Below are positions 2,559-63,388 of a DNA stretch of 64,000 nucleotides, piece by piece. The DNA lies in the NCBI GenBank assembly GCA_934717805.1, contig CAKUZG010000001.1, positions 2,806-66,805 of the forward strand, given 5' to 3'. Within the stretch, counting starts at the first letter, position 1; every line of letters begins with the position of its first letter. The position numbers and the translations under genes are program-made. The stretch is from an uncultured Candidatus Saccharibacteria bacterium. Its GTDB lineage: Bacteria; Patescibacteriota; Saccharimonadia; Saccharimonadales; Saccharimonadaceae. The notes below the pieces were generated by a model. That model saw only the letters and a program-made list of their open reading frames with translations. It did no database searches and was not told the origin of the DNA.

Positions 2559-3608
2559 TTATTTTACTAATTCAATCTTTAGTTTTTCAATTAATTCCAC
2601 TGGTGTTGGGTTAACATTATTCAAAATTGCAAGATAAATACTGACAAAATCTGCTAAAATCGAACCCCAGAAAATTTGCTCAAGATAGGTTGAACCTTTA
2701 AGTTCGATATTGCGTGCGGCTGGGCGCTTTCCACTTAAAAGCCTATCTGAAATTTCAAAGCGTTTTTGCACTCGCGGATGATCTAAATTACTTCGAAGAT
2801 TAAAAATTGCAAAGAGTTTTTCAACTGGGTGCGAGCTCCAACCGATAAATTCATTGTGATTGAATTCCGGATATTCGTTATAAAAGCTAACATTTTTAGC
2901 GTTTTCGTTCCAAGAAATCTTCCATTTGTAAGCTAGCGGCGAAAATTCGTTTGAACTTAGAAAAACTGCACTTCGCCCTGCCGAATAAAGCGCTAATTGT
3001 TTGGCGTAGTTTCTTTCAGTTAAAATATTTGCTGTCCAAGATTCGCTTTCTTTTCGTAAAAAGTCGGCATAATGTTCGATTTCTTCATGCTTTTCGTTTG
3101 AGATAATTCCAAAATTTACTAAAATTTTTGTTAGAGCGCGGAAATTATAGATTACGGCCATTCGAGGTTGTAGGCCAGCTGGTAGTTTAACGTGCGCAAT
3201 ATCACGACTTCGAGCGATTTCTTCAATTTTACCATGTGAAGAAACGGTTGCGATTTGTGCACCGATTTCAATAGCTTGATGTAGCGCTGAAACTGTCTCT
3301 TCAGTATTTCCAGAGTAAGAACTAATAATTACAAGTGTATTTTTCGAAACATTTTTTGGTAAAGTATAGTTTCGAATAACTTCAATCGGTAAAGAAATCT
3401 CATTTTCGAGCCATTTCTTAACAATCAAGCCAGCGAGTGCTGAACCACCCATTCCAGCAATTACAATATTTTTAATTTCCCTCCCATCATTTTCAGGAGA
3501 AAGAACTTCTGCTTGAAAAAGCGCTTGTTTCCACTGTTCGCTAGCAACTAAAAGTGCATTTTGTGGATCGCGCTGAACTAATATATTGAAATTATCTAAC
3601 ATTTCCAC
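2559..3608 (-). CDS. bifunctional phosphoglucose/phosphomannose isomerase (SIS domain family)
   Basis: SIS motif GMGGSALAG and SYSGNTEET. Length and C-terminal region are typical of the PGI/PMI family. Confidence 0.8.
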   Translation of the reverse strand: MEMLDNFNILVQRDPQNALLVASEQWKQALFQAEVLSPENDGREIKNIVIAGMGGSALAGLIVKKWLENEISLPIEVIRNYTLPKNVSKNTLVIISSYSGNTEETVSALHQAIEIGAQIATVSSHGKIEEIARSRDIAHVKLPAGLQPRMAVIYNFRALTKILVNFGIISNEKHEEIEHYADFLRKESESWTANILTERNYAKQLALYSAGRSAVFLSSNEFSPLAYKWKISWNENAKNVSFYNEYPEFNHNEFIGWSSHPVEKLFAIFNLRSNLDHPRVQKRFEISDRLLSGKRPAARNIELKGSTYLEQIFWGSILADFVSIYLAILNNVNPTPVELIEKLKIELVK

Positions 3609-54668: not shown

Positions 54669-55586
54669 TTATTCTGTTTCGCTATGAAATCGTTCGTGGA
54701 TTTCTTTCAAATGTTGATCAGTAATGTGTGTATAAATTTGTGTTGTTGCGATACTCGCGTGTCCAAGCATACCTTGAACTGAGCGTAAATCTGCGCCATT
54801 CACGAGCAAATCTGTTGCAAAAGAATGGCGCATTGTGTGCGGAGAAACGTGTTTCGTGATTCCTGCTAGGCGCGCGTATTTTTCAACCATTCTCTGAACT
54901 GAGCGGGCAGTAATTCGGCGGTAATTTCCATCTGTTGATGGTTTTTTATAGCGTTTCGAATAATTCAAAAATAACGGCTGAAGGTTATCTTCTCGTGCTT
55001 GCAAGTAATTTTCAATATGTTCGGCAGCTTTTTTCGAAATAAAAATTGGGCGATCTTTGTTTCCTTTTCCGCGAACCGTAAACTCACGTCGTTTTGTGTT
55101 GATGCTTCCGCGATTTAAACTCACAAGTTCTGAAACACGGAGTCCGCTAGAAAAAAGCAGTTCAATAATTGCACGATCGCGCAAGTCGCTTTCAGTTTCG
55201 TTTGGAATTGCTGAAATTAAACGTTCAACTTCTTCGTAGTGCAAAAAATTTACTTGCGGTTTAACAATTTTTGGTAGTTCAATTTTTGAAGGTTCAAGAC
55301 TTTTAATATCTCGGCGCGAAAGGTAAGTTAAAAATCTTCGAAGCGCGATAAGATGATACGCTTGGGTAGTTCTACCTAAACTTTTGCCAGAATCATTTTC
55401 GTAACGATTGAGCCACAAGCGATATTTTCGAACAAGTTCAGAAGTGATTTCTTTAACAGGGATATCTCCCGAAAATTCCACAAGTCGCTCTAAATATAGT
55501 TGATAATTCTCGGCAGTTTTTTTCGAACGGCCACCTTCAACTTCGAGCGACTCAATAAAATCTTCAATCCCTTCAGAAATATACAT
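54669..55586 (-). CDS. tyrosine site-specific recombinase, XerC/XerD type
   Basis: R...HxxR...Y catalytic pattern (HTMRHSFATDLL, GHASIATTQIYTHI) and an N-terminal SAM-like domain. Confidence 0.88.
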   Translation of the reverse strand: MYISEGIEDFIESLEVEGGRSKKTAENYQLYLERLVEFSGDIPVKEITSELVRKYRLWLNRYENDSGKSLGRTTQAYHLIALRRFLTYLSRRDIKSLEPSKIELPKIVKPQVNFLHYEEVERLISAIPNETESDLRDRAIIELLFSSGLRVSELVSLNRGSINTKRREFTVRGKGNKDRPIFISKKAAEHIENYLQAREDNLQPLFLNYSKRYKKPSTDGNYRRITARSVQRMVEKYARLAGITKHVSPHTMRHSFATDLLVNGADLRSVQGMLGHASIATTQIYTHITDQHLKEIHERFHSETE

Positions 55587-57883: not shown

Positions 57884-57961
57884 TGGCGCGCCCGACCGGA
57901 TTCGAACCGGCGATCTCCTCCGTGACAGGGAGGCGTACTAGGCCAGCTATACCACGAGCGC
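57884..57961 (-). tRNA. tRNA-Asp (anticodon GTC), CCA encoded
   Basis: Reverse complement reads GCGCTCG...CGGGCGC-G-CCA. Anticodon loop CTGTCAC, T-loop GGTTCGAATCC. Confidence 0.9.
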
Positions 57962-58059: not shown

Positions 58060-58135
58060 GCCGATGTAGCTCAGTTGGTAGAGCAACGCACTCGTAACGC
58101 GTAGGTCAGCAGTTCAATCCTGCTCATCGGCTCCA
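58060..58135 (+). tRNA. tRNA-Thr (anticodon CGT), CCA encoded
   Basis: GCCGATG...CATCGGC-T-CCA, anticodon loop CTCGTAA, T-loop AGTTCAATCC. Extended -10 TGTGCTATAAT upstream. Confidence 0.9.
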
Positions 58136-58524: not shown

Positions 58525-60218
58525 TGAAAAAACAAAAGATCGATATCGAAATCCCACTTGGAAAGCGAACTTTAAAGTATCGCTTTTTCGAGATTTTACC
58601 AGCATTTTTAAGTTTTGGCGCAATTATTTTAATGTTCATACTTTCGTTCTTTTCACCTTTTTTGGCCTCAGTTTATCTTTTAACGATTATTACAACTCTT
58701 CTTATTAAAGCGATTGGAATTGCTTATCGAATGATAACAGGGCATATACAGATTGAAAAAGCTCAAAAAGTTAATTGGAATAAGCGACTTTCTGAACTAG
58801 AAAATCCTAAAAAAGCGCTTGAGAAGATAAAAAATCAGGAAAAAAGTAAGGAATACGATTTTAAACAGCATGTTCAAAATTTGCATGATATTATAGATAG
58901 ACCAGAAGCTTTTCCAGATCCTTTCTCGGTAAAAAATGCCGTGATTATTGCCGCTTATAACGAACCTTATGAAGTGATTCAACCAACAATTAAATCTGTT
59001 TTAGCTTCAAATTATGATGCTAAAAATCTTTTAATTTTCTTGGCCTATGAGGAACGCGGCGGTGAAGGTATTGAAAAAACTGCAATTCGGCTCAAAAAAG
59101 AGTTTTCGAAAAGTTTTGGCGCTTTCGAAATTGTAAAACACCCAAAAAATCTACCAAATGAAGTTGTTGGAAAAGGTGGAAATATCACTTTTGCTGGCCG
59201 AGCATTGCAAAAATATTGTGAAGATAATAAAATTCCTTTCGAAAATGTACTAGTTACAACTTTAGATAGCGATAACAAACCTCATAAAGAATATTTTGCT
59301 GCTGCAACCTATGAATTTGTTGTTCATGAAGATCGCAAAAAGTTATCATATCAGCCAGTTTCGTTATTTTTGAATAATATTTGGGATGTTCCAGCGCCAA
59401 TGCGCGTGGTTGCAACTGGTAATTCATTTTGGAATATTGTTTCAACGATGCGGCCGCACCTTTTGCGAAATTTCGCTTCACACTCTCAACCGTTAGATGC
59501 TTTGGTTGAAATGGATTTTTGGTCAACTCGCACAATTGTTGAAGATGGACATCAATTCTGGCGCAGTTATTTCCACTTTAATGGTGATTATTATGTTGTG
59601 CCGATTCGCGTGCCAATCTATCAAGATGCGGTTTTGAGCGAAACTTTACTAAAAACACTTAAAGCTCAATTTATTCAACTTCGTCGTTGGATGTATGGCG
59701 CAAGTGATATTCCTTACGTTGCGAATTTATATTTTTCAAAAAATCGAAATGTTCCACTCATTGATGGCCTAATGAAATTAATCCGATTAATTGATGGTCA
59801 CGTAACAGCTGTGTTTCAATCACCAATGGCAGCTTTTGGCGGTTGGGTTCCGTTGATTGTTTATGCGGCATCATCTCGCAGTGTGATTGTTCACCAATTA
59901 CCGAATGTTATCAGTACACTTCAACAAATTGCAACAATTGGTATTTTTATCACAATTTTAATTAGCTTAAAGATGCTACCACCACGTCCAGAACGATATA
60001 AAAAACGTCGTTCTTTCTGGATGGTTGCGCAGTGGATCTATATGCCTGTAACTTCAATCTGTTATAATGCGGCAGCTGCAGCGTATTCACAAACCCGATT
60101 AGCACTTGGTAAATATCTTGATAAATTTGATGTTACCGAGAAGGGGCGAATTGAAGATGTTGAACGCGCCAAGGCGGAAAAAGCTAAAAAGCGAGCATTG
60201 AAAAAGCAAAAAAAATAA
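58524..60218 (+). CDS. membrane-embedded family-2 glycosyltransferase (processive, cellulose/chitin-synthase-like)
   Basis: IIAAYNEP, TTLDSDN (DxD) and QLRRW (QxxRW) motifs, flanked by TM helices. Confidence 0.8.
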   Translation: MKKQKIDIEIPLGKRTLKYRFFEILPAFLSFGAIILMFILSFFSPFLASVYLLTIITTLLIKAIGIAYRMITGHIQIEKAQKVNWNKRLSELENPKKALEKIKNQEKSKEYDFKQHVQNLHDIIDRPEAFPDPFSVKNAVIIAAYNEPYEVIQPTIKSVLASNYDAKNLLIFLAYEERGGEGIEKTAIRLKKEFSKSFGAFEIVKHPKNLPNEVVGKGGNITFAGRALQKYCEDNKIPFENVLVTTLDSDNKPHKEYFAAATYEFVVHEDRKKLSYQPVSLFLNNIWDVPAPMRVVATGNSFWNIVSTMRPHLLRNFASHSQPLDALVEMDFWSTRTIVEDGHQFWRSYFHFNGDYYVVPIRVPIYQDAVLSETLLKTLKAQFIQLRRWMYGASDIPYVANLYFSKNRNVPLIDGLMKLIRLIDGHVTAVFQSPMAAFGGWVPLIVYAASSRSVIVHQLPNVISTLQQIATIGIFITILISLKMLPPRPERYKKRRSFWMVAQWIYMPVTSICYNAAAAAYSQTRLALGKYLDKFDVTEKGRIEDVERAKAEKAKKRALKKQKK

Positions 60219-60243
60219 GCACTCTGAAAAGGGTGTTTTATTT

Positions 60244-60455
60244 TTGACTTTGGAATTTAAATTTATAAAATTTAAAAGCGGCCATTTTGACCGCCTAACG
60301 TAGGGACATTTGTAAGATTTTATTAAACCTTACCAAAAAATGCGTCGTTGTTTGGGTAACGAAAAGAAGAGGTAGAGAACCTAACAGATGAATTTCCGAT
60401 TTTTTACGCCCAAACCTGGTTGAACTTTTTCCGCAGTTCAACCTCGTTTTTTTAT
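60244..60455 (+). ncRNA. candidate small RNA unit 1 (promoter to terminator, about 175 nt)
   Basis: TTGACT (60244-60249), 16-nt spacer, TAAAAT (60266-60271). Internal helices include GTTTGGG/CCCAAAC. Strong terminator GGTTGAAC-N10-GTTCAACC (60418-60443) plus a T-run. Only 11-codon ORFs inside. Confidence 0.4.
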
Positions 60456-60756
60456 TTTAATGCTTTTTATGTAAAAATTCAAGTGTAACCACAATGACAC
60501 TCACTTTTTAAAGATTAAAATTTTGTTCGCTTTTGGTAAAAAATACATTTTTATAATTAAAACATTTCACGCGAAAGTCAAATAAAAGGAGGCGAACAAA
60601 CTTAAAGCAAATATATCACCAGATAAATAAAAATTTTCAAAAGTTAAAAACTATCTTGTGGAAAAGATTTTAGAAAATGTGCAAAACTAAAAACACTACA
60701 ACGCTATATATGGGGAAGAGAAAAATAACAGAAGCTATAAATCTCTTTGTATTTTT

Positions 60757-60950
60757 TTGCAAAAAAGTGAGCTTTTTGATATAATTAAAGTGTCTCAAAA
60801 ATTAAGTATTAAAAGCATTTCGGAAAGTGCATTTTTTTCGCATAGTTAAAGCCCTTGAAGTAGGGCGCCTTAGCGAGAAAAATTTATTTTAGGGTTTGAC
60901 CCGAAATGCGTAAGAATTTTTGAGACACTCGTTCGGGTGTCCTATTTTTA
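60757..60950 (+). ncRNA. candidate rod-like structured RNA, or structured 5' leader of the methyltransferase operon
   Basis: TTGCAA (60757-60762), 17-nt spacer, TATAAT (60780-60785). Nested helices pair 60790-60803 with 60915-60928 (14 bp), 60815-60823 with 60901-60909 (9 bp), 60832-60841 with 60873-60882 (10 bp), and 60851-60854 with 60863-60866. GACAC (60924-60928) can instead pair with GTGTC (60937-60941) before a T-run. Confidence 0.55.
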
Positions 60951-60992
60951 TTTCTTGCGCATTTTTATCTTTTCGGAAAGAAAGGATTTTTC

Positions 60993-62117
60993 GTGGCGAA
61001 TAAAAATTTACATAACGCCAAAGAATCAAAAAACGATGAATTTTACACACAACTTGAAGATATCGAAAAGGAGCTTTCGCACTACCGCCACCATTTTGAA
61101 GGTAAGGTAATTTTTTGCAACTGTGACGACCCTTATGAGAGTAACTTTTTCAAGTATTTTGTGCTAAATTTTAACACTTTAAAACTCAAAAAACTAATTG
61201 CCACCAGCTATATTGCTTCGCCCGTAGCTTTCAAAGAATTGCCGGCTAAAAAGGGAAATTCATCTTTTGAAGATTTACTCAAGCCTTATAAAATCGAAAT
61301 TGATGAAGTCTATGACCAAAATGGCGATGGTGCGATTAACTTACAAGATGTGAAAGAGATTTTAGAAAAAGCCGAAAAGGGTGGCAAAATGACAAGGCTA
61401 ACTGGTGATGGTGATTTTCGAAGTAGCGAGAGCAAAGAGTTGCTCAAGCAGGCCGATATTGTGGTGACCAACCCGCCGTTTTCGCTGTTTCGTGAATATG
61501 TGGCGCAATTGATTGAATTTAATAAAAAGTTTATTATTTTGGGGAATAATAACGCGATAACTTATAAAGAGATTTTTCCATTAATTAAAAATGGTAAAAT
61601 GTGGCTTGGTTATAGCGCAAATAAAACGATGACTTTTCGTTTGAGCAATCACTACAAACGCTGGAATTATATTGACGAAAATGGTAATAAATATGGCAAT
61701 GTGCCAGCAATTACTTGGTATACAAATTTAGATATTAAAAAACGCCACGAAGAACTGATTTTGGTAAAGAAATATAATCCACTTGATTACCCAAAATATG
61801 ATAATTACGACGCGATTGAAGTTTCGAAAGTGAAAGATATCCCTAAAGATTATGACGGCGTGATGGGTGTGCCAATAACTTTTTTCGATAAGTTCAATCC
61901 TGATCAATTTGAGGTTGTAGGACAAGGACAGGGAAATCTTTTTAGACAAATTTCAGATAAGGGACTTAGGGCTTCGTTTGTTGATAGCTATTATAAATTT
62001 GGTGGAAAAGGAGCTATAAAAGAAAATCACCCAGTTTTAGGATATTATAACAATAATGGTAAGCCTATTATTCCATATATGAGAATTTTAATCAAAAACA
62101 AGAAAGTAGAAAGGTAA
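60993..62117 (+). CDS. N6-adenine DNA methyltransferase, EcoRI-methylase-like family
   Basis: N-terminal SKNDEFYTQ...NCDDP...SNFFKYF and catalytic VTNPPF motif. GTG start after AAAGG. Family assignment is from memory of M.EcoRI-like sequences. Confidence 0.8.
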   Translation: MANKNLHNAKESKNDEFYTQLEDIEKELSHYRHHFEGKVIFCNCDDPYESNFFKYFVLNFNTLKLKKLIATSYIASPVAFKELPAKKGNSSFEDLLKPYKIEIDEVYDQNGDGAINLQDVKEILEKAEKGGKMTRLTGDGDFRSSESKELLKQADIVVTNPPFSLFREYVAQLIEFNKKFIILGNNNAITYKEIFPLIKNGKMWLGYSANKTMTFRLSNHYKRWNYIDENGNKYGNVPAITWYTNLDIKKRHEELILVKKYNPLDYPKYDNYDAIEVSKVKDIPKDYDGVMGVPITFFDKFNPDQFEVVGQGQGNLFRQISDKGLRASFVDSYYKFGGKGAIKENHPVLGYYNNNGKPIIPYMRILIKNKKVER

Positions 62118-62121
62118 AGCG

Positions 62122-63210
62122 ATGAAAATTGAGCTACACAAAATTAAAATAAAAGAGCTGTTTGCTGGTTTCGAAAATGATGAAGAAGCTGGTGTGGTGG
62201 GCTTTGATGGCAAGTTGAATATTCGCCCACCGTATCAGCGAGAGTTTGTTTATAAAGATGATCAACAGCGAGAAGTGATTCGCACTATTCGAAAAGGTTT
62301 TCCGCTCAATATTATGTATTGGTCAAAGAACAGTGATGGCACTTTTGAGCTTTTGGATGGGCAACAGCGCACGATGTCGATTTGTAAATATTTGAATGGT
62401 GATTTTAGTGTTGATGGTGCTTATTTTAATAATTTAACGCTTGAAGAACAAAAGCAAATTGAAGAATACGGGTTGATGATTTATTTTTGCGAAGGTGAAA
62501 CGCGCGAAAAACTAGATTGGTTCAAAATTGTGAACATTGCGGGCGAAGAACTAACGCCACAAGAGTTGAGAAATTCAGTTTATACGGGAAGTTGGTTGGT
62601 TGACGCTAAGCGATATTTTAGTAAAAGTGGTTGTCCTGCACAAGATGGTTATAATAATTATTTGAACAAGAGTTATCTTCGCCAAGAGGTTTTGGAAACT
62701 GTTTTGAAGTGGATTTCTGGCGGAAATATCGAGAACTATATGGGAATCCACCAGCATGACGCAAACGCGAAAGAGCTTTGGCGATATTTTGAAGATGTTA
62801 TGGAATGGGTACAGGCTGTTTTTCCAAATTATCGCAAAGAAATGAAAGGTTTGCCGTGGGGTGAATTTTATAACGAATTCAAAGATCAAGGTTTCGAAAA
62901 GATTGGTGAAGAAAATGAACGGCGGGTTTCGGAACTCTATAAAGATAATGAAGTTACCAAGAAAAGCGGGATTTATCAATATATTCTAACGGATAACGAG
63001 AAATATTTGAGCTTGCGAGCTTTTGATGATGATATTAAAAGTCAAGTTTATGAACAGCAAAAGGGAATTTGCCCAATTTGTCATAAGCACTACGCAATTG
63101 AAGAAATGGAAGCTGATCATATCAACCCATGGAGTAAAGGTGGAAAAACGGTGGCCGAAAACTGCCAAATGCTTTGCAAAAAAGATAATCGCGAGAAGAG
63201 TGATAAGTAA
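62122..63210 (+). CDS. DUF262 (ParB/Srx-like, GmrSD N-terminal type) domain fused to a C-terminal HNH nuclease
   Basis: PPYQREFVY and LLDGQQR motifs (DUF262). C-terminal CPIC...ADHINPWSKGG...NCQMLCKKDN (zinc-finger HNH). Starts 4 nt after the MTase stop. Confidence 0.8.
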   Translation: MKIELHKIKIKELFAGFENDEEAGVVGFDGKLNIRPPYQREFVYKDDQQREVIRTIRKGFPLNIMYWSKNSDGTFELLDGQQRTMSICKYLNGDFSVDGAYFNNLTLEEQKQIEEYGLMIYFCEGETREKLDWFKIVNIAGEELTPQELRNSVYTGSWLVDAKRYFSKSGCPAQDGYNNYLNKSYLRQEVLETVLKWISGGNIENYMGIHQHDANAKELWRYFEDVMEWVQAVFPNYRKEMKGLPWGEFYNEFKDQGFEKIGEENERRVSELYKDNEVTKKSGIYQYILTDNEKYLSLRAFDDDIKSQVYEQQKGICPICHKHYAIEEMEADHINPWSKGGKTVAENCQMLCKKDNREKSDK

Positions 63211-63311: not shown

Positions 63312-63388
63312 TGGTGGGCGATAGAGGACTCGAACCTCTGACTTTCACAACGTCAATGTGACGCTCTAGCCAACTGAGCTAATCGCCC
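63312..63388 (-). tRNA. tRNA-Val (anticodon GAC), CCA encoded
   Basis: Reverse complement reads GGGCGAT...ATCGCCC-A-CCA. Anticodon loop TTGACGT, T-loop GGTTCGAGTCC. Confidence 0.9.

Follow-up and report, generated by a model that had tools for sequence, protein, structure and literature searches.

Restriction-modification (R-M) systems must keep a lethal nuclease in step with a protective methylase, and a strongly structured segment directly in front of such an operon raises the question of what it contributes. We studied such a case in a stretch of 64,000 nt from an uncultured Candidatus Saccharibacteria bacterium (hereafter the window), in which a leader of about 207 nt precedes an EcoRI-family adenine methyltransferase with a GTG start (60993-62117) and a nuclease with DUF262 (GmrSD_N) and HNH domains (62122-63210), both identified by domain and profile matches. 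Features are on the plus strand unless stated otherwise. An earlier reading of the letters alone, made without database searches (hereafter the sequence-only reading), had singled out the leader as a rod-like RNA competing with a terminator. We conclude that the element is a real and conserved regulatory RNA, apparently undescribed, and that it is probably the 5' leader of the methylase-nuclease mRNA, where it would act in cis as a transcription attenuator with multiple states. It falls into the familiar class of terminator-based leader control; its architecture and evolutionary pattern are unusual, and its biological context is new.

A rod whose base overlaps a terminator

The minimum-free-energy (MFE) fold of 60786-60950 is an interrupted rod of -53 kcal/mol (z = -5.4), and none of 200 dinucleotide shuffles was as stable. 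The rod spans 60789-60929. We call its 5' side strand 1 (segments a, b and c) and its 3' side strand 2 (segments c', b' and a'); strand 3, further downstream, is made of the terminator 3' arm (a''), a U-run and segment b''. The closing helix pairs a (60789-60803) with a' (60915-60929), an inverted repeat that is perfect over 15 nt, and the last bases of a' double as the 5' arm of the terminator. The middle helix pairs b (GCATTTCGG, 60815-60823) with CCGAAATGC (60901-60909). The latter belongs to b' (60901-60916), part of an inverted repeat with two alternative partners: b, or b'' (TTCTTGCGCATTTT, 60952-60965) in strand 3, which lengthens the terminator stem into a second rod. Above the middle helix, a U-rich upper helix joins c (CATTTTTTTCGC, 60830-60841) to c' (GCGAGAAAAATTT, 60873-60885); it is the most sequence-conserved helix of the rod, with 87% of cells paired across the sequences compared below. 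The tip is the apical hairpin GCCC-UUGAAGUA-GGGC (60851-60866), and the 3' side of this apex, a* (GAAGTAGGGCGCCT, 60857-60870), is complementary to the terminator 3' arm plus CCUAUUUU (60935-60948). A scan of 60200-61000 for inverted and other repeats found no tandem repeats.

The predicted promoter (60757-60785) consists of a -35 box TTGCAA, a 17-nt spacer and an extended -10 box, TGaTATAAT, with 10/12 matches and the TG before the -10. The same TTGCAA-17-TATAAT arrangement is found in alleles C and D of the leader (see below), and allele B keeps the extended -10 only. Seven nucleotides past the -10, a T(-1)/G(+1) step is invariant in 16/16 distinct leader sequences (columns 2 and 3 of helix a never vary), which suggests that transcription starts at G60792. 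We also considered a leaderless mini-ORF (open reading frame) at the 5' end, with GTG, TTG or ATG at nt 2-4, and rejected it: it would be 2-37 codons long across alleles, with no conservation, and the -1/+1 step of the start site explains the invariant TG better.

The terminator hairpin, GACACTC-GTTC-GGGTGTC (60924-60941, extendable to 60921-60944; -9.4 kcal/mol), has CTATTTTTAT directly after it. The U-run CTATTTTTATTT occupies 60942-60953, and its YCUAUUU motif is kept in all alleles. A terminator is predicted at the equivalent position in L008, L090, L098 and L043, four of the loci compared below. Closer to the gene, a start-site hairpin (60967-60987) pairs an anti-Shine-Dalgarno segment (anti-SD; ATCTTTTC, 60967-60974) with the Shine-Dalgarno sequence (SD; GAAAGGAT, 60980-60987) in the folds of most alleles. 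It is beyond the reach of a covariation test because its SD side never varies.

Much of the sequence-only reading is borne out by these results. The consensus-like promoter is present, the rod begins at the predicted 5' end of the transcript, and the rod is no product of chance, given the shuffles and its retention in at least seven diverged alleles. The closing helix of 14 bp exists, as a 15-nt repeat in the DNA; with a start at G60792, it would be 12 bp long in the RNA. The nested helices (the middle helix, the U-rich helix and the GCCC/GGGC tip) are all in the MFE fold, the middle one displaced by one base from the position implied. The GACAC of the 3' arm is indeed shared with the terminator, and an overlap of this kind is found in every allele, although with the likely start site it covers 3-6 nt rather than five. 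The terminator had been called weak, which it is not especially, since the stem energies across six alleles range from -8.3 to -13.5 kcal/mol.

Diverged leader alleles keep the competing helices

Judged by the NCBI names of near-identical proteins, the related strains belong to Candidatus Nanogingivalaceae, within the Saccharibacteria (TM7), and their contigs come from human-associated metagenomes. Across 40 related loci we distinguished at least seven leader alleles, A-F plus G (in L124), the window carrying allele A. They are about 50-60% identical to each other, inside loci that are otherwise 94-100% identical. In the comparison with L008, for example, identity is 94-100% except in two patches, one running from the promoter through the leader (60714-60990, about 55%) and one at the C-terminal end of the methylase (61905-62086, about 40%). 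Alleles A, C, D and E have the same promoter and the same SD and diverge between the start site and the anti-SD, so that the variable block is the transcribed leader itself. Conserved islands are few (UUUCGRAA, UAGRRCR, CGGAAAAAUUU and YCUAUUU), and the conservation of the remaining sequence is very low. All alleles nevertheless keep the rod, the terminator and their overlap by means of compensatory changes. Within allele C, the 5' arm of helix c has a poly-T tract of T6 in L090 and of T9 in L120, a difference in length that might tune the structure.

Four competing pairings have covariation support across the alleles: the rod (a:a' and b:b'), the terminator (a':a''), b':b'' and a*:a''. We counted pairs helix by helix on the 16 distinct leader sequences, for which controls with slid arms gave 27-56% of cells paired. 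Helix a:a' is paired in 96% of cells, with both sides changed in 11/14 columns, and helix b:b' in 91%, with both sides changed in 7/8. The corresponding values are 95% and 4/7 for the terminator a':a'', and 100% and 11/11 for b':b''. The rod 3' arm shares bases with the terminator in every allele, and the covariation at this point is three-way: GUGUC/GACAC/GUGUC in allele A, UGCUUU/AAAGCA/UGCUUU in E and AUGCU/AGCAU/AUGCU in F. Compensation is also seen inside single alleles, between the window (AAATGCGTAAGAA / TTCTTGCGCATTT) and L108 (AAATGCACAAGAA / TTCTTGTGCATTT), and between L008 (AGATACATTAAA / TTTAATGTATCT) and L112 (AGATGCATTAAA / TTTAATGCGTCT).

The fourth helix, a*:a'', was revealed by RNAalifold and pairs 60857-60870 with the terminator loop, the 3' arm and CCUAUUU (60935-60948). 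It is 93% paired and has a covariation score of 0.47, against 0.07-0.18 for slid arms, a value that 0/500 shuffles reached. Its predicted net energy is -2 to -11 kcal/mol once the costs of opening are counted. A covariance model based on allele A only retrieves each of the other alleles in full length. In the resulting alignment of the rod, 94% of cells are paired and both sides have changed in 36/49 pairs, counts that lean towards the structure because the alignment is fitted to the model; the covariation score is 0.479, against 0.158 for shuffled and 0.05-0.11 for slid alignments.

In cross-allele duplexes, the predicted energies for strand 1 with strand 2 are -28 to -32 kcal/mol for cognate pairs and -5 to -21 for non-cognate ones, and for strand 2 with strand 3 they are -23 to -34 and -6 to -25 kcal/mol, respectively. 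By these calculations the complementarity of both strand pairs is allele-specific.

We then compared two global folds of the full leader: rod I (strands 1 and 2) and rod II (strands 2 and 3, with the terminator at the tip). Their energies differ by 0.2-6 kcal/mol out of about -60 in 16/16 sequences (the 9.4 kcal/mol gap of F_L121 separates rod I from the unconstrained MFE fold, not rod I from rod II). When the RNA starts with G at +1, the top pairs of the terminator form at a probability of about 0.9 in 5/6 alleles tested; in allele E, five inner pairs were scored, of which just the outermost two come to about 0.93. With the same start, the pairs shared by the rod base and the terminator divide roughly 40:60. 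When three extra 5' bases are included, the pairing probabilities let the rod win outright over the terminator. In these models, the competition between rod and terminator is thus real and finely balanced. The sequence-only reading had taken the two to be mutually exclusive and had proposed covariation as a check: covariation is found in the leader helices across alleles and confirms the competition, which, with the likely start site, is a balance more than a strict exclusion.

The leader is one of three shuffled cassettes

The alleles of the leader assort independently of the two variable patches of the methylase and of the variants of the nuclease. An identical methylase (P0017) is found with leader alleles A, D and E, and nucleases that are 99-100% identical are found with A, C and D, which rules out a coupling of the leader allele to the specificity of the methylase or to the nuclease variant. 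We also rejected the idea that the leader is an antisense or a template for the diverged C-terminus of the methylase or for any other part of the operon, as complementarity and similarity were no better than chance.

The methylase is itself a mosaic, with a frame conserved to more than 95% around two cassette-like hypervariable patches (roughly 61605-61712 and 61905-62086; amino acids ~205-240 and ~305-362). In the manner of specificity domains, these patches are shuffled among strains independently of one another. The leader and the two patches are three independently shuffled ancient cassettes of the locus. The nuclease does not follow the changes of the methylase: L114 and L118, for instance, have nucleases that are 100% identical and methylases with different C-terminal patches. 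Because the nuclease is unchanged when the methylase patches change, its sequence suggests that it takes its choice of target from the methylase, as in Type I and Type III systems, although both proteins have full-length matches to REBASE-derived Type II profiles (that of the nuclease being a Type II restriction endonuclease profile).

Genes and spacers around the leader

The gene order is common to all close relatives: a glycosyltransferase-like gene, a spacer of about 775 nt, the leader, the methylase, the nuclease and ThrRS. The leader stays with the methylase and DUF262-HNH operon at every close locus, in agreement with the association expected by the sequence-only reading. The context is that of a chromosomal R-M system, not of a prophage immunity region. 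We examined the 775-nt spacer for a small regulator gene and found no convincing ORF. A scan of the genome collection for close relatives of the window methylase returned none, the best match being 61% identical.

Several other features of the region were recorded. The spacer at 60219-60713 (500 nt) is AT-rich and non-coding, with terminator-like hairpins at 60217-60238 (plus strand), 60296-60276 (minus strand) and 60418-60443 (plus strand), and with a strong SD-like AAGGAGG at about 60587 that has no ORF behind it. It is 90-100% conserved with L008 in most 50-nt windows though non-coding; at 60378-60413 identity is 70%, with a 14-nt gap. In L105, an additional ORF of 222 amino acids without a Pfam match (2894-3562, minus strand) is inserted between the glycosyltransferase-like gene and the leader. 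The nuclease gene of L090 (5181-6269) is broken into ORFs of 230 and 122 amino acids next to an intact methylase, which, judged from its sequence, may be an inactivation of the nuclease that leaves an orphan methylase. In the window, tRNA genes flank the R-M region on both sides (57887-57961, minus; 58060-58132, plus; 63315-63388, minus), and a XerC/D-like integrase gene is found at 54669-55586.

Structured leaders at distant loci

The gene pair extends far beyond these strains, as the methylase has the nuclease after it at 74/80 distant genomic loci spread over many phyla. At 22/74 of these loci, the 230 nt that precede the methylase have strong structure (z < -4), which holds for 2/122 control windows. 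Viral contigs (L127-L206) have structured leaders in 6/71 loci; the methylase family is common there, with 182 relatives, and the nuclease adjoins it in about half of the 76 loci scored.

The covariance model of allele A matches one distant locus, L043, a second Saccharibacteria locus whose methylase is 56% identical. Its terminator is the same (GGACACC...GGTGTCC TATTTTG), and b'' overlaps the AUG there. The model has no matches in other phyla, and an nhmmer sequence search of the distant loci found the same lineage only (L124 and L125). A strict automated test for an overlap between rod 3' arm and terminator at distant loci was clearly positive for L043 only. On the basis of these models, clear homology of the leader is detected within Saccharibacteria only. 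The sequence-only reading had wondered about a similar RNA upstream of homologous pairs elsewhere: structure recurs there more often than in controls, and homology is clear only inside the lineage.

The leaders of other phyla show a comparable layout. Clostridia-type (L010, L045, L055 and L122) and Bacteroidia-type leaders (L069, L079 and others) have a long rod, a terminator and a start-proximal hairpin, and the 3' side of their apex is complementary to sequence just past the rod base, in or beside the terminator. A crude test of apex-to-tail pairing gave p <= 0.05 in 8/27 distant loci; it missed known positives, owing to an imperfect automatic finding of rods. We treat these leaders as analogous to the Saccharibacteria ones, not as proven homologues. 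The four Clostridia-type loci also carry, about 60-90 nt upstream of the methylase start, a conserved motif, GGAGUUUGCGUUU, between the rod and a strong terminator; the apex of the rod carries GCAAA(C/U)UCC, complementary to this motif. In seven Bacteroidales-type loci (L013, L018, L021, L029, L034, L041 and L051), the last ~35 nt before the methylase ATG hold a near-identical hairpin or palindrome, GATTGATAG...CTATCAATC, which L039, of the same type, carries with one substitution. From its sequence and position, it could be a translation-blocking hairpin or an operator.

Relation to known regulatory systems

The leader resembles the attenuators that work by an intrinsic terminator (trp, pyr, T-box and riboswitch platforms) in being promoter-proximal, in placing a terminator and a U-run before the first gene, and in having an upstream helix that shares bases with the terminator 5' arm, an arrangement kept here by covariation. 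Unlike them, it has no leader peptide, no aptamer core and no known protein or tRNA site. Its antiterminator is the base of a 140-nt rod, it has two extra alternative helices that use bases downstream of the decision point, and it is a hypervariable allelic cassette that would control an R-M operon. The attenuator- or riboswitch-like logic put forward by the sequence-only reading is thus upheld as regards the switch, which gains two further alternative helices with covariation; the near-absence of conserved sequence makes a ligand-sensing riboswitch unlikely. The leader also has no conserved ligand-binding core and no Rfam match, and its sequence is hypervariable. Searches of Rfam at the gathering threshold found tRNAs only in the whole window, with no match to the leader, and again tRNAs only in 14 distant loci.

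Some phage RNAs have a similar layout. In the immunity RNA CI of satellite phage P4, an upstream (seqA) and a downstream (seqC) segment are complementary to a central one, in an arrangement tied to premature termination, and the central segment is processed to a small trans-acting RNA within the phage immunity circuit (PMC4825925). The leader studied here likewise has a central segment complementary to upstream and downstream segments of the same transcript, and its variants differ by compensatory changes, as do those of the P4 and P1 systems. P1/P7 c4 is a further immunity RNA of the P4 CI type. Unlike P4 CI, our leader stands in a chromosomal R-M operon and is known from its sequence and predicted folds. 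In Salmonella, one promoter of Gifsy-1 gives IsrK, a short terminated RNA, and a read-through mRNA, with two alternative leader structures, and the short form was shown to act in trans by activating the translation of the long form (PMC4825925). A short terminated RNA and a read-through mRNA with two leader structures are also predicted here, the trans step being a possibility only.

The known controls of Type II R-M systems are C proteins, autorepression by helix-turn-helix (HTH) methylases, promoter methylation and the antisense RNAs of EcoRI and Eco29kI (PMC12707154). They answer the same need, a balance of toxic nuclease and protective methylase. We found no C gene at the locus and no HTH on the methylase. 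The RNA differs from the known ones in being sense and encoded in cis at the 5' end of the operon, rather than an antisense transcript arising within the nuclease gene. Hairpins at start sites are also listed in a review of R-M regulation from 2025, in which the words attenuation, leader and riboswitch do not occur (PMC12707154), and our literature searches found no description of this R-M leader element, in line with the sequence-only reading, to which no described R-M or type IV system with one was known.

The resemblance to 6S RNA or retrons that the sequence-only reading had noted does not hold. Like 6S RNA, the leader has the outline of an interrupted rod, 140-180 nt long, and a promoter of its own. 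Unlike it, it is hypervariable between near-identical strains and linked to an R-M system, its terminator overlaps the rod, and it has no Rfam match at E <= 10 on 60300-61200, 6S models included. We rejected a retron msr-msd RNA because no reverse transcriptase is adjacent, the neighbours being the glycosyltransferase-like protein, the methylase, the nuclease and ThrRS. A ToxI-like type III antitoxin RNA does not fit either, since 60200-61000 has no tandem repeats and the proteins encoded downstream are a DNA methylase and an HNH nuclease.

Probable transcription attenuation and its rivals

We consider it probable that the element controls the operon by attenuation. What the sequences and folds show is the helices with their covariation and mutual exclusivity, the strand and the link to the operon; the start site, the actual termination or read-through, the sense in which regulation works and a possible input signal are part of the scheme that we infer. 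In it, the strong promoter would start the RNA at about G60792, right in the 5' arm of the rod formed by strands 1 and 2. The base of the rod would hold the 5' arm nucleotides of the intrinsic terminator (GACACUC...GGGUGUC and its U-run). Full closure of the rod would cut the terminator stem to about 4 bp and let the polymerase read into the operon; with an open base, the terminator would form and a short rod RNA of about 155-160 nt would be released. Given the near-balance obtained with this start, the default would be a leaky terminator, yielding much short RNA and little mRNA. In the read-through RNA, strand 2 would leave strand 1 to pair with the downstream copy of strand 1 (the terminator 3' arm, the U-run and b''), which would give a second rod of almost equal energy, and the 3' side of the apex may also capture the terminator 3' arm and CCUAUUU.

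Several points weigh against this scheme. We found no input signal and no sensing element in the leader, be it a leader peptide, an aptamer match or a conserved core: no ORF is conserved between alleles, and neither Rfam nor the conservation profile shows an aptamer-like core. The rod of 140 nt is much longer than a simple cis antiterminator needs. Helices a*:a'' and b':b'' use bases that are made after the decision to terminate, and must therefore serve a later step, either the fate of the mRNA or an action in trans. The start-site hairpin is identical in the folds of both conformations, so that a control of translation by the switch is not evident in this lineage. A cis attenuator also leaves unexplained why the transcribed leader alone is an ancient hypervariable cassette, and attenuation does not account for the maintenance of a regulatory RNA as deeply diverged alleles. 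Finally, the sequence-only reading had seen no other promoter before the GTG. Downstream of the promoter at 60757-60785 there is one other promoter-like match, a weak one (9/12) at 60920-60948 that overlaps the terminator and is also present in alleles B and D. It could be the true promoter of the operon in alleles A, B and D; as we read the sequences, alleles C, E and F do not keep its -35, which speaks against this role.

A different explanation, to which we give a minor but appreciable chance, is that the short terminated rod RNA acts in trans on the nascent or read-through leaders of its own allele, as an RNA controller with self-recognition; the apical a* or strand 2, for example, could pair with the terminator region or with strand 3. 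One transcript carries three-way complementary segments with allele-specific compensation, laid out as in P4 CI, and the logic of short and long isoforms matches that of IsrK (PMC4825925). The hypervariable block is the transcribed leader, from +1 to the anti-SD, a pattern expected of a specificity determinant. Furthermore, with a strong promoter and a terminator behind it, abundant short RNA would be expected, and a* lies partly in the apical loop, its pairing with the tail being favourable after opening costs. The complementary strands are, however, locked inside an intramolecular rod, and cis folding alone explains every helix; no second target was found in the window, and the leader alleles co-vary with no other part of the locus.

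It is rather unlikely that the rod is instead a double-stranded RNA element of processing or stability (an RNase III substrate or a 5'-protective helix) that sets the half-life and translatability of the mRNA, with the terminator as a constitutive dampener that is not regulated. Such a role leaves unexplained the a*:a'' helix, the conservation of the overlap between rod and terminator, and the fact that the two rods are close in energy, even if a structure that is kept when its sequence is not would suit a sequence-independent enzyme that binds double-stranded RNA. It would also fit a predicted 5' end that is base-paired in every allele, the long duplex of rod II and the recurrence of rods of 110-150 nt in distant leaders. 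We think it very improbable that the defence has the short RNA as a third component, which a leaky terminator would produce in larger amounts than the mRNA, as in type III toxin-antitoxin systems, and which would bind or restrain the nuclease or the methylase. An RNA gene, a leaky terminator and toxic-protein genes make a ToxIN-like layout, and in several phyla the gene pair comes with a structured leader; against this, tandem repeats are lacking, the partner is a DNA nuclease and not an endoribonuclease, leader alleles and nuclease variants assort freely, and many homologous pairs and most viral copies have no structured leader. Scarcely credible, finally, is a feature of the DNA rather than a functional RNA, be it a recombination site, an operator, the end of a mobile element or a palindromic repeat. 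In the window, either strand gives a good fold, and the locus is a recombination mosaic; yet in 16/16 sequences G-U pairs make the rod of the plus strand 6-21 kcal/mol more stable than that of the minus strand, and selection thus acts on the plus-strand transcript, not on a DNA palindrome. In addition, the leader is single-copy in the window, its promoter, U-run and SD are positioned as for an RNA leader, and the proteins of the module include neither a recombinase nor a DNA-binding regulator. Two specific candidates were dismissed on such grounds: an integron attC site or inverton (the arms of allele A have no GTTRRRY/RYYYAAC cores, the promoter is outside the repeat and the module has no recombinase), and a dispersed palindromic repeat resembling miniature inverted-repeat transposable elements or repetitive extragenic palindromes (one copy in the 64-kb window, with the plus strand favoured in all 16 sequences).

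Implications for the control of restriction-modification

The most far-reaching possibility is also doubtful: the locus might have an RNA-based, allele-specific R-M controller, with the cassettes as specificity groups and the apex-tail leaders as one class of RNA across phyla. If so, an abundant short rod RNA would recognise the leaders of its own allele only, via the hypervariable strands or a*, and would decide in trans between termination and read-through. Balancing selection would keep the cassettes as specificity groups, comparable at the RNA level to phage heteroimmunity or to the incompatibility groups of C proteins, and an architecture in which the apex pairs with the tail may unite structured leaders across Saccharibacteria, Firmicutes, Bacteroidota and other phyla.

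Attenuation in cis, the reading that we prefer, has consequences of its own. If a sense leader controls access to the entire operon through a terminator, it would be a solution made of RNA only, next to those based on proteins, promoter methylation and antisense RNAs. This leader occurs in the ultra-small Saccharibacteria, and related structured leaders stand before the same gene pair in several phyla.

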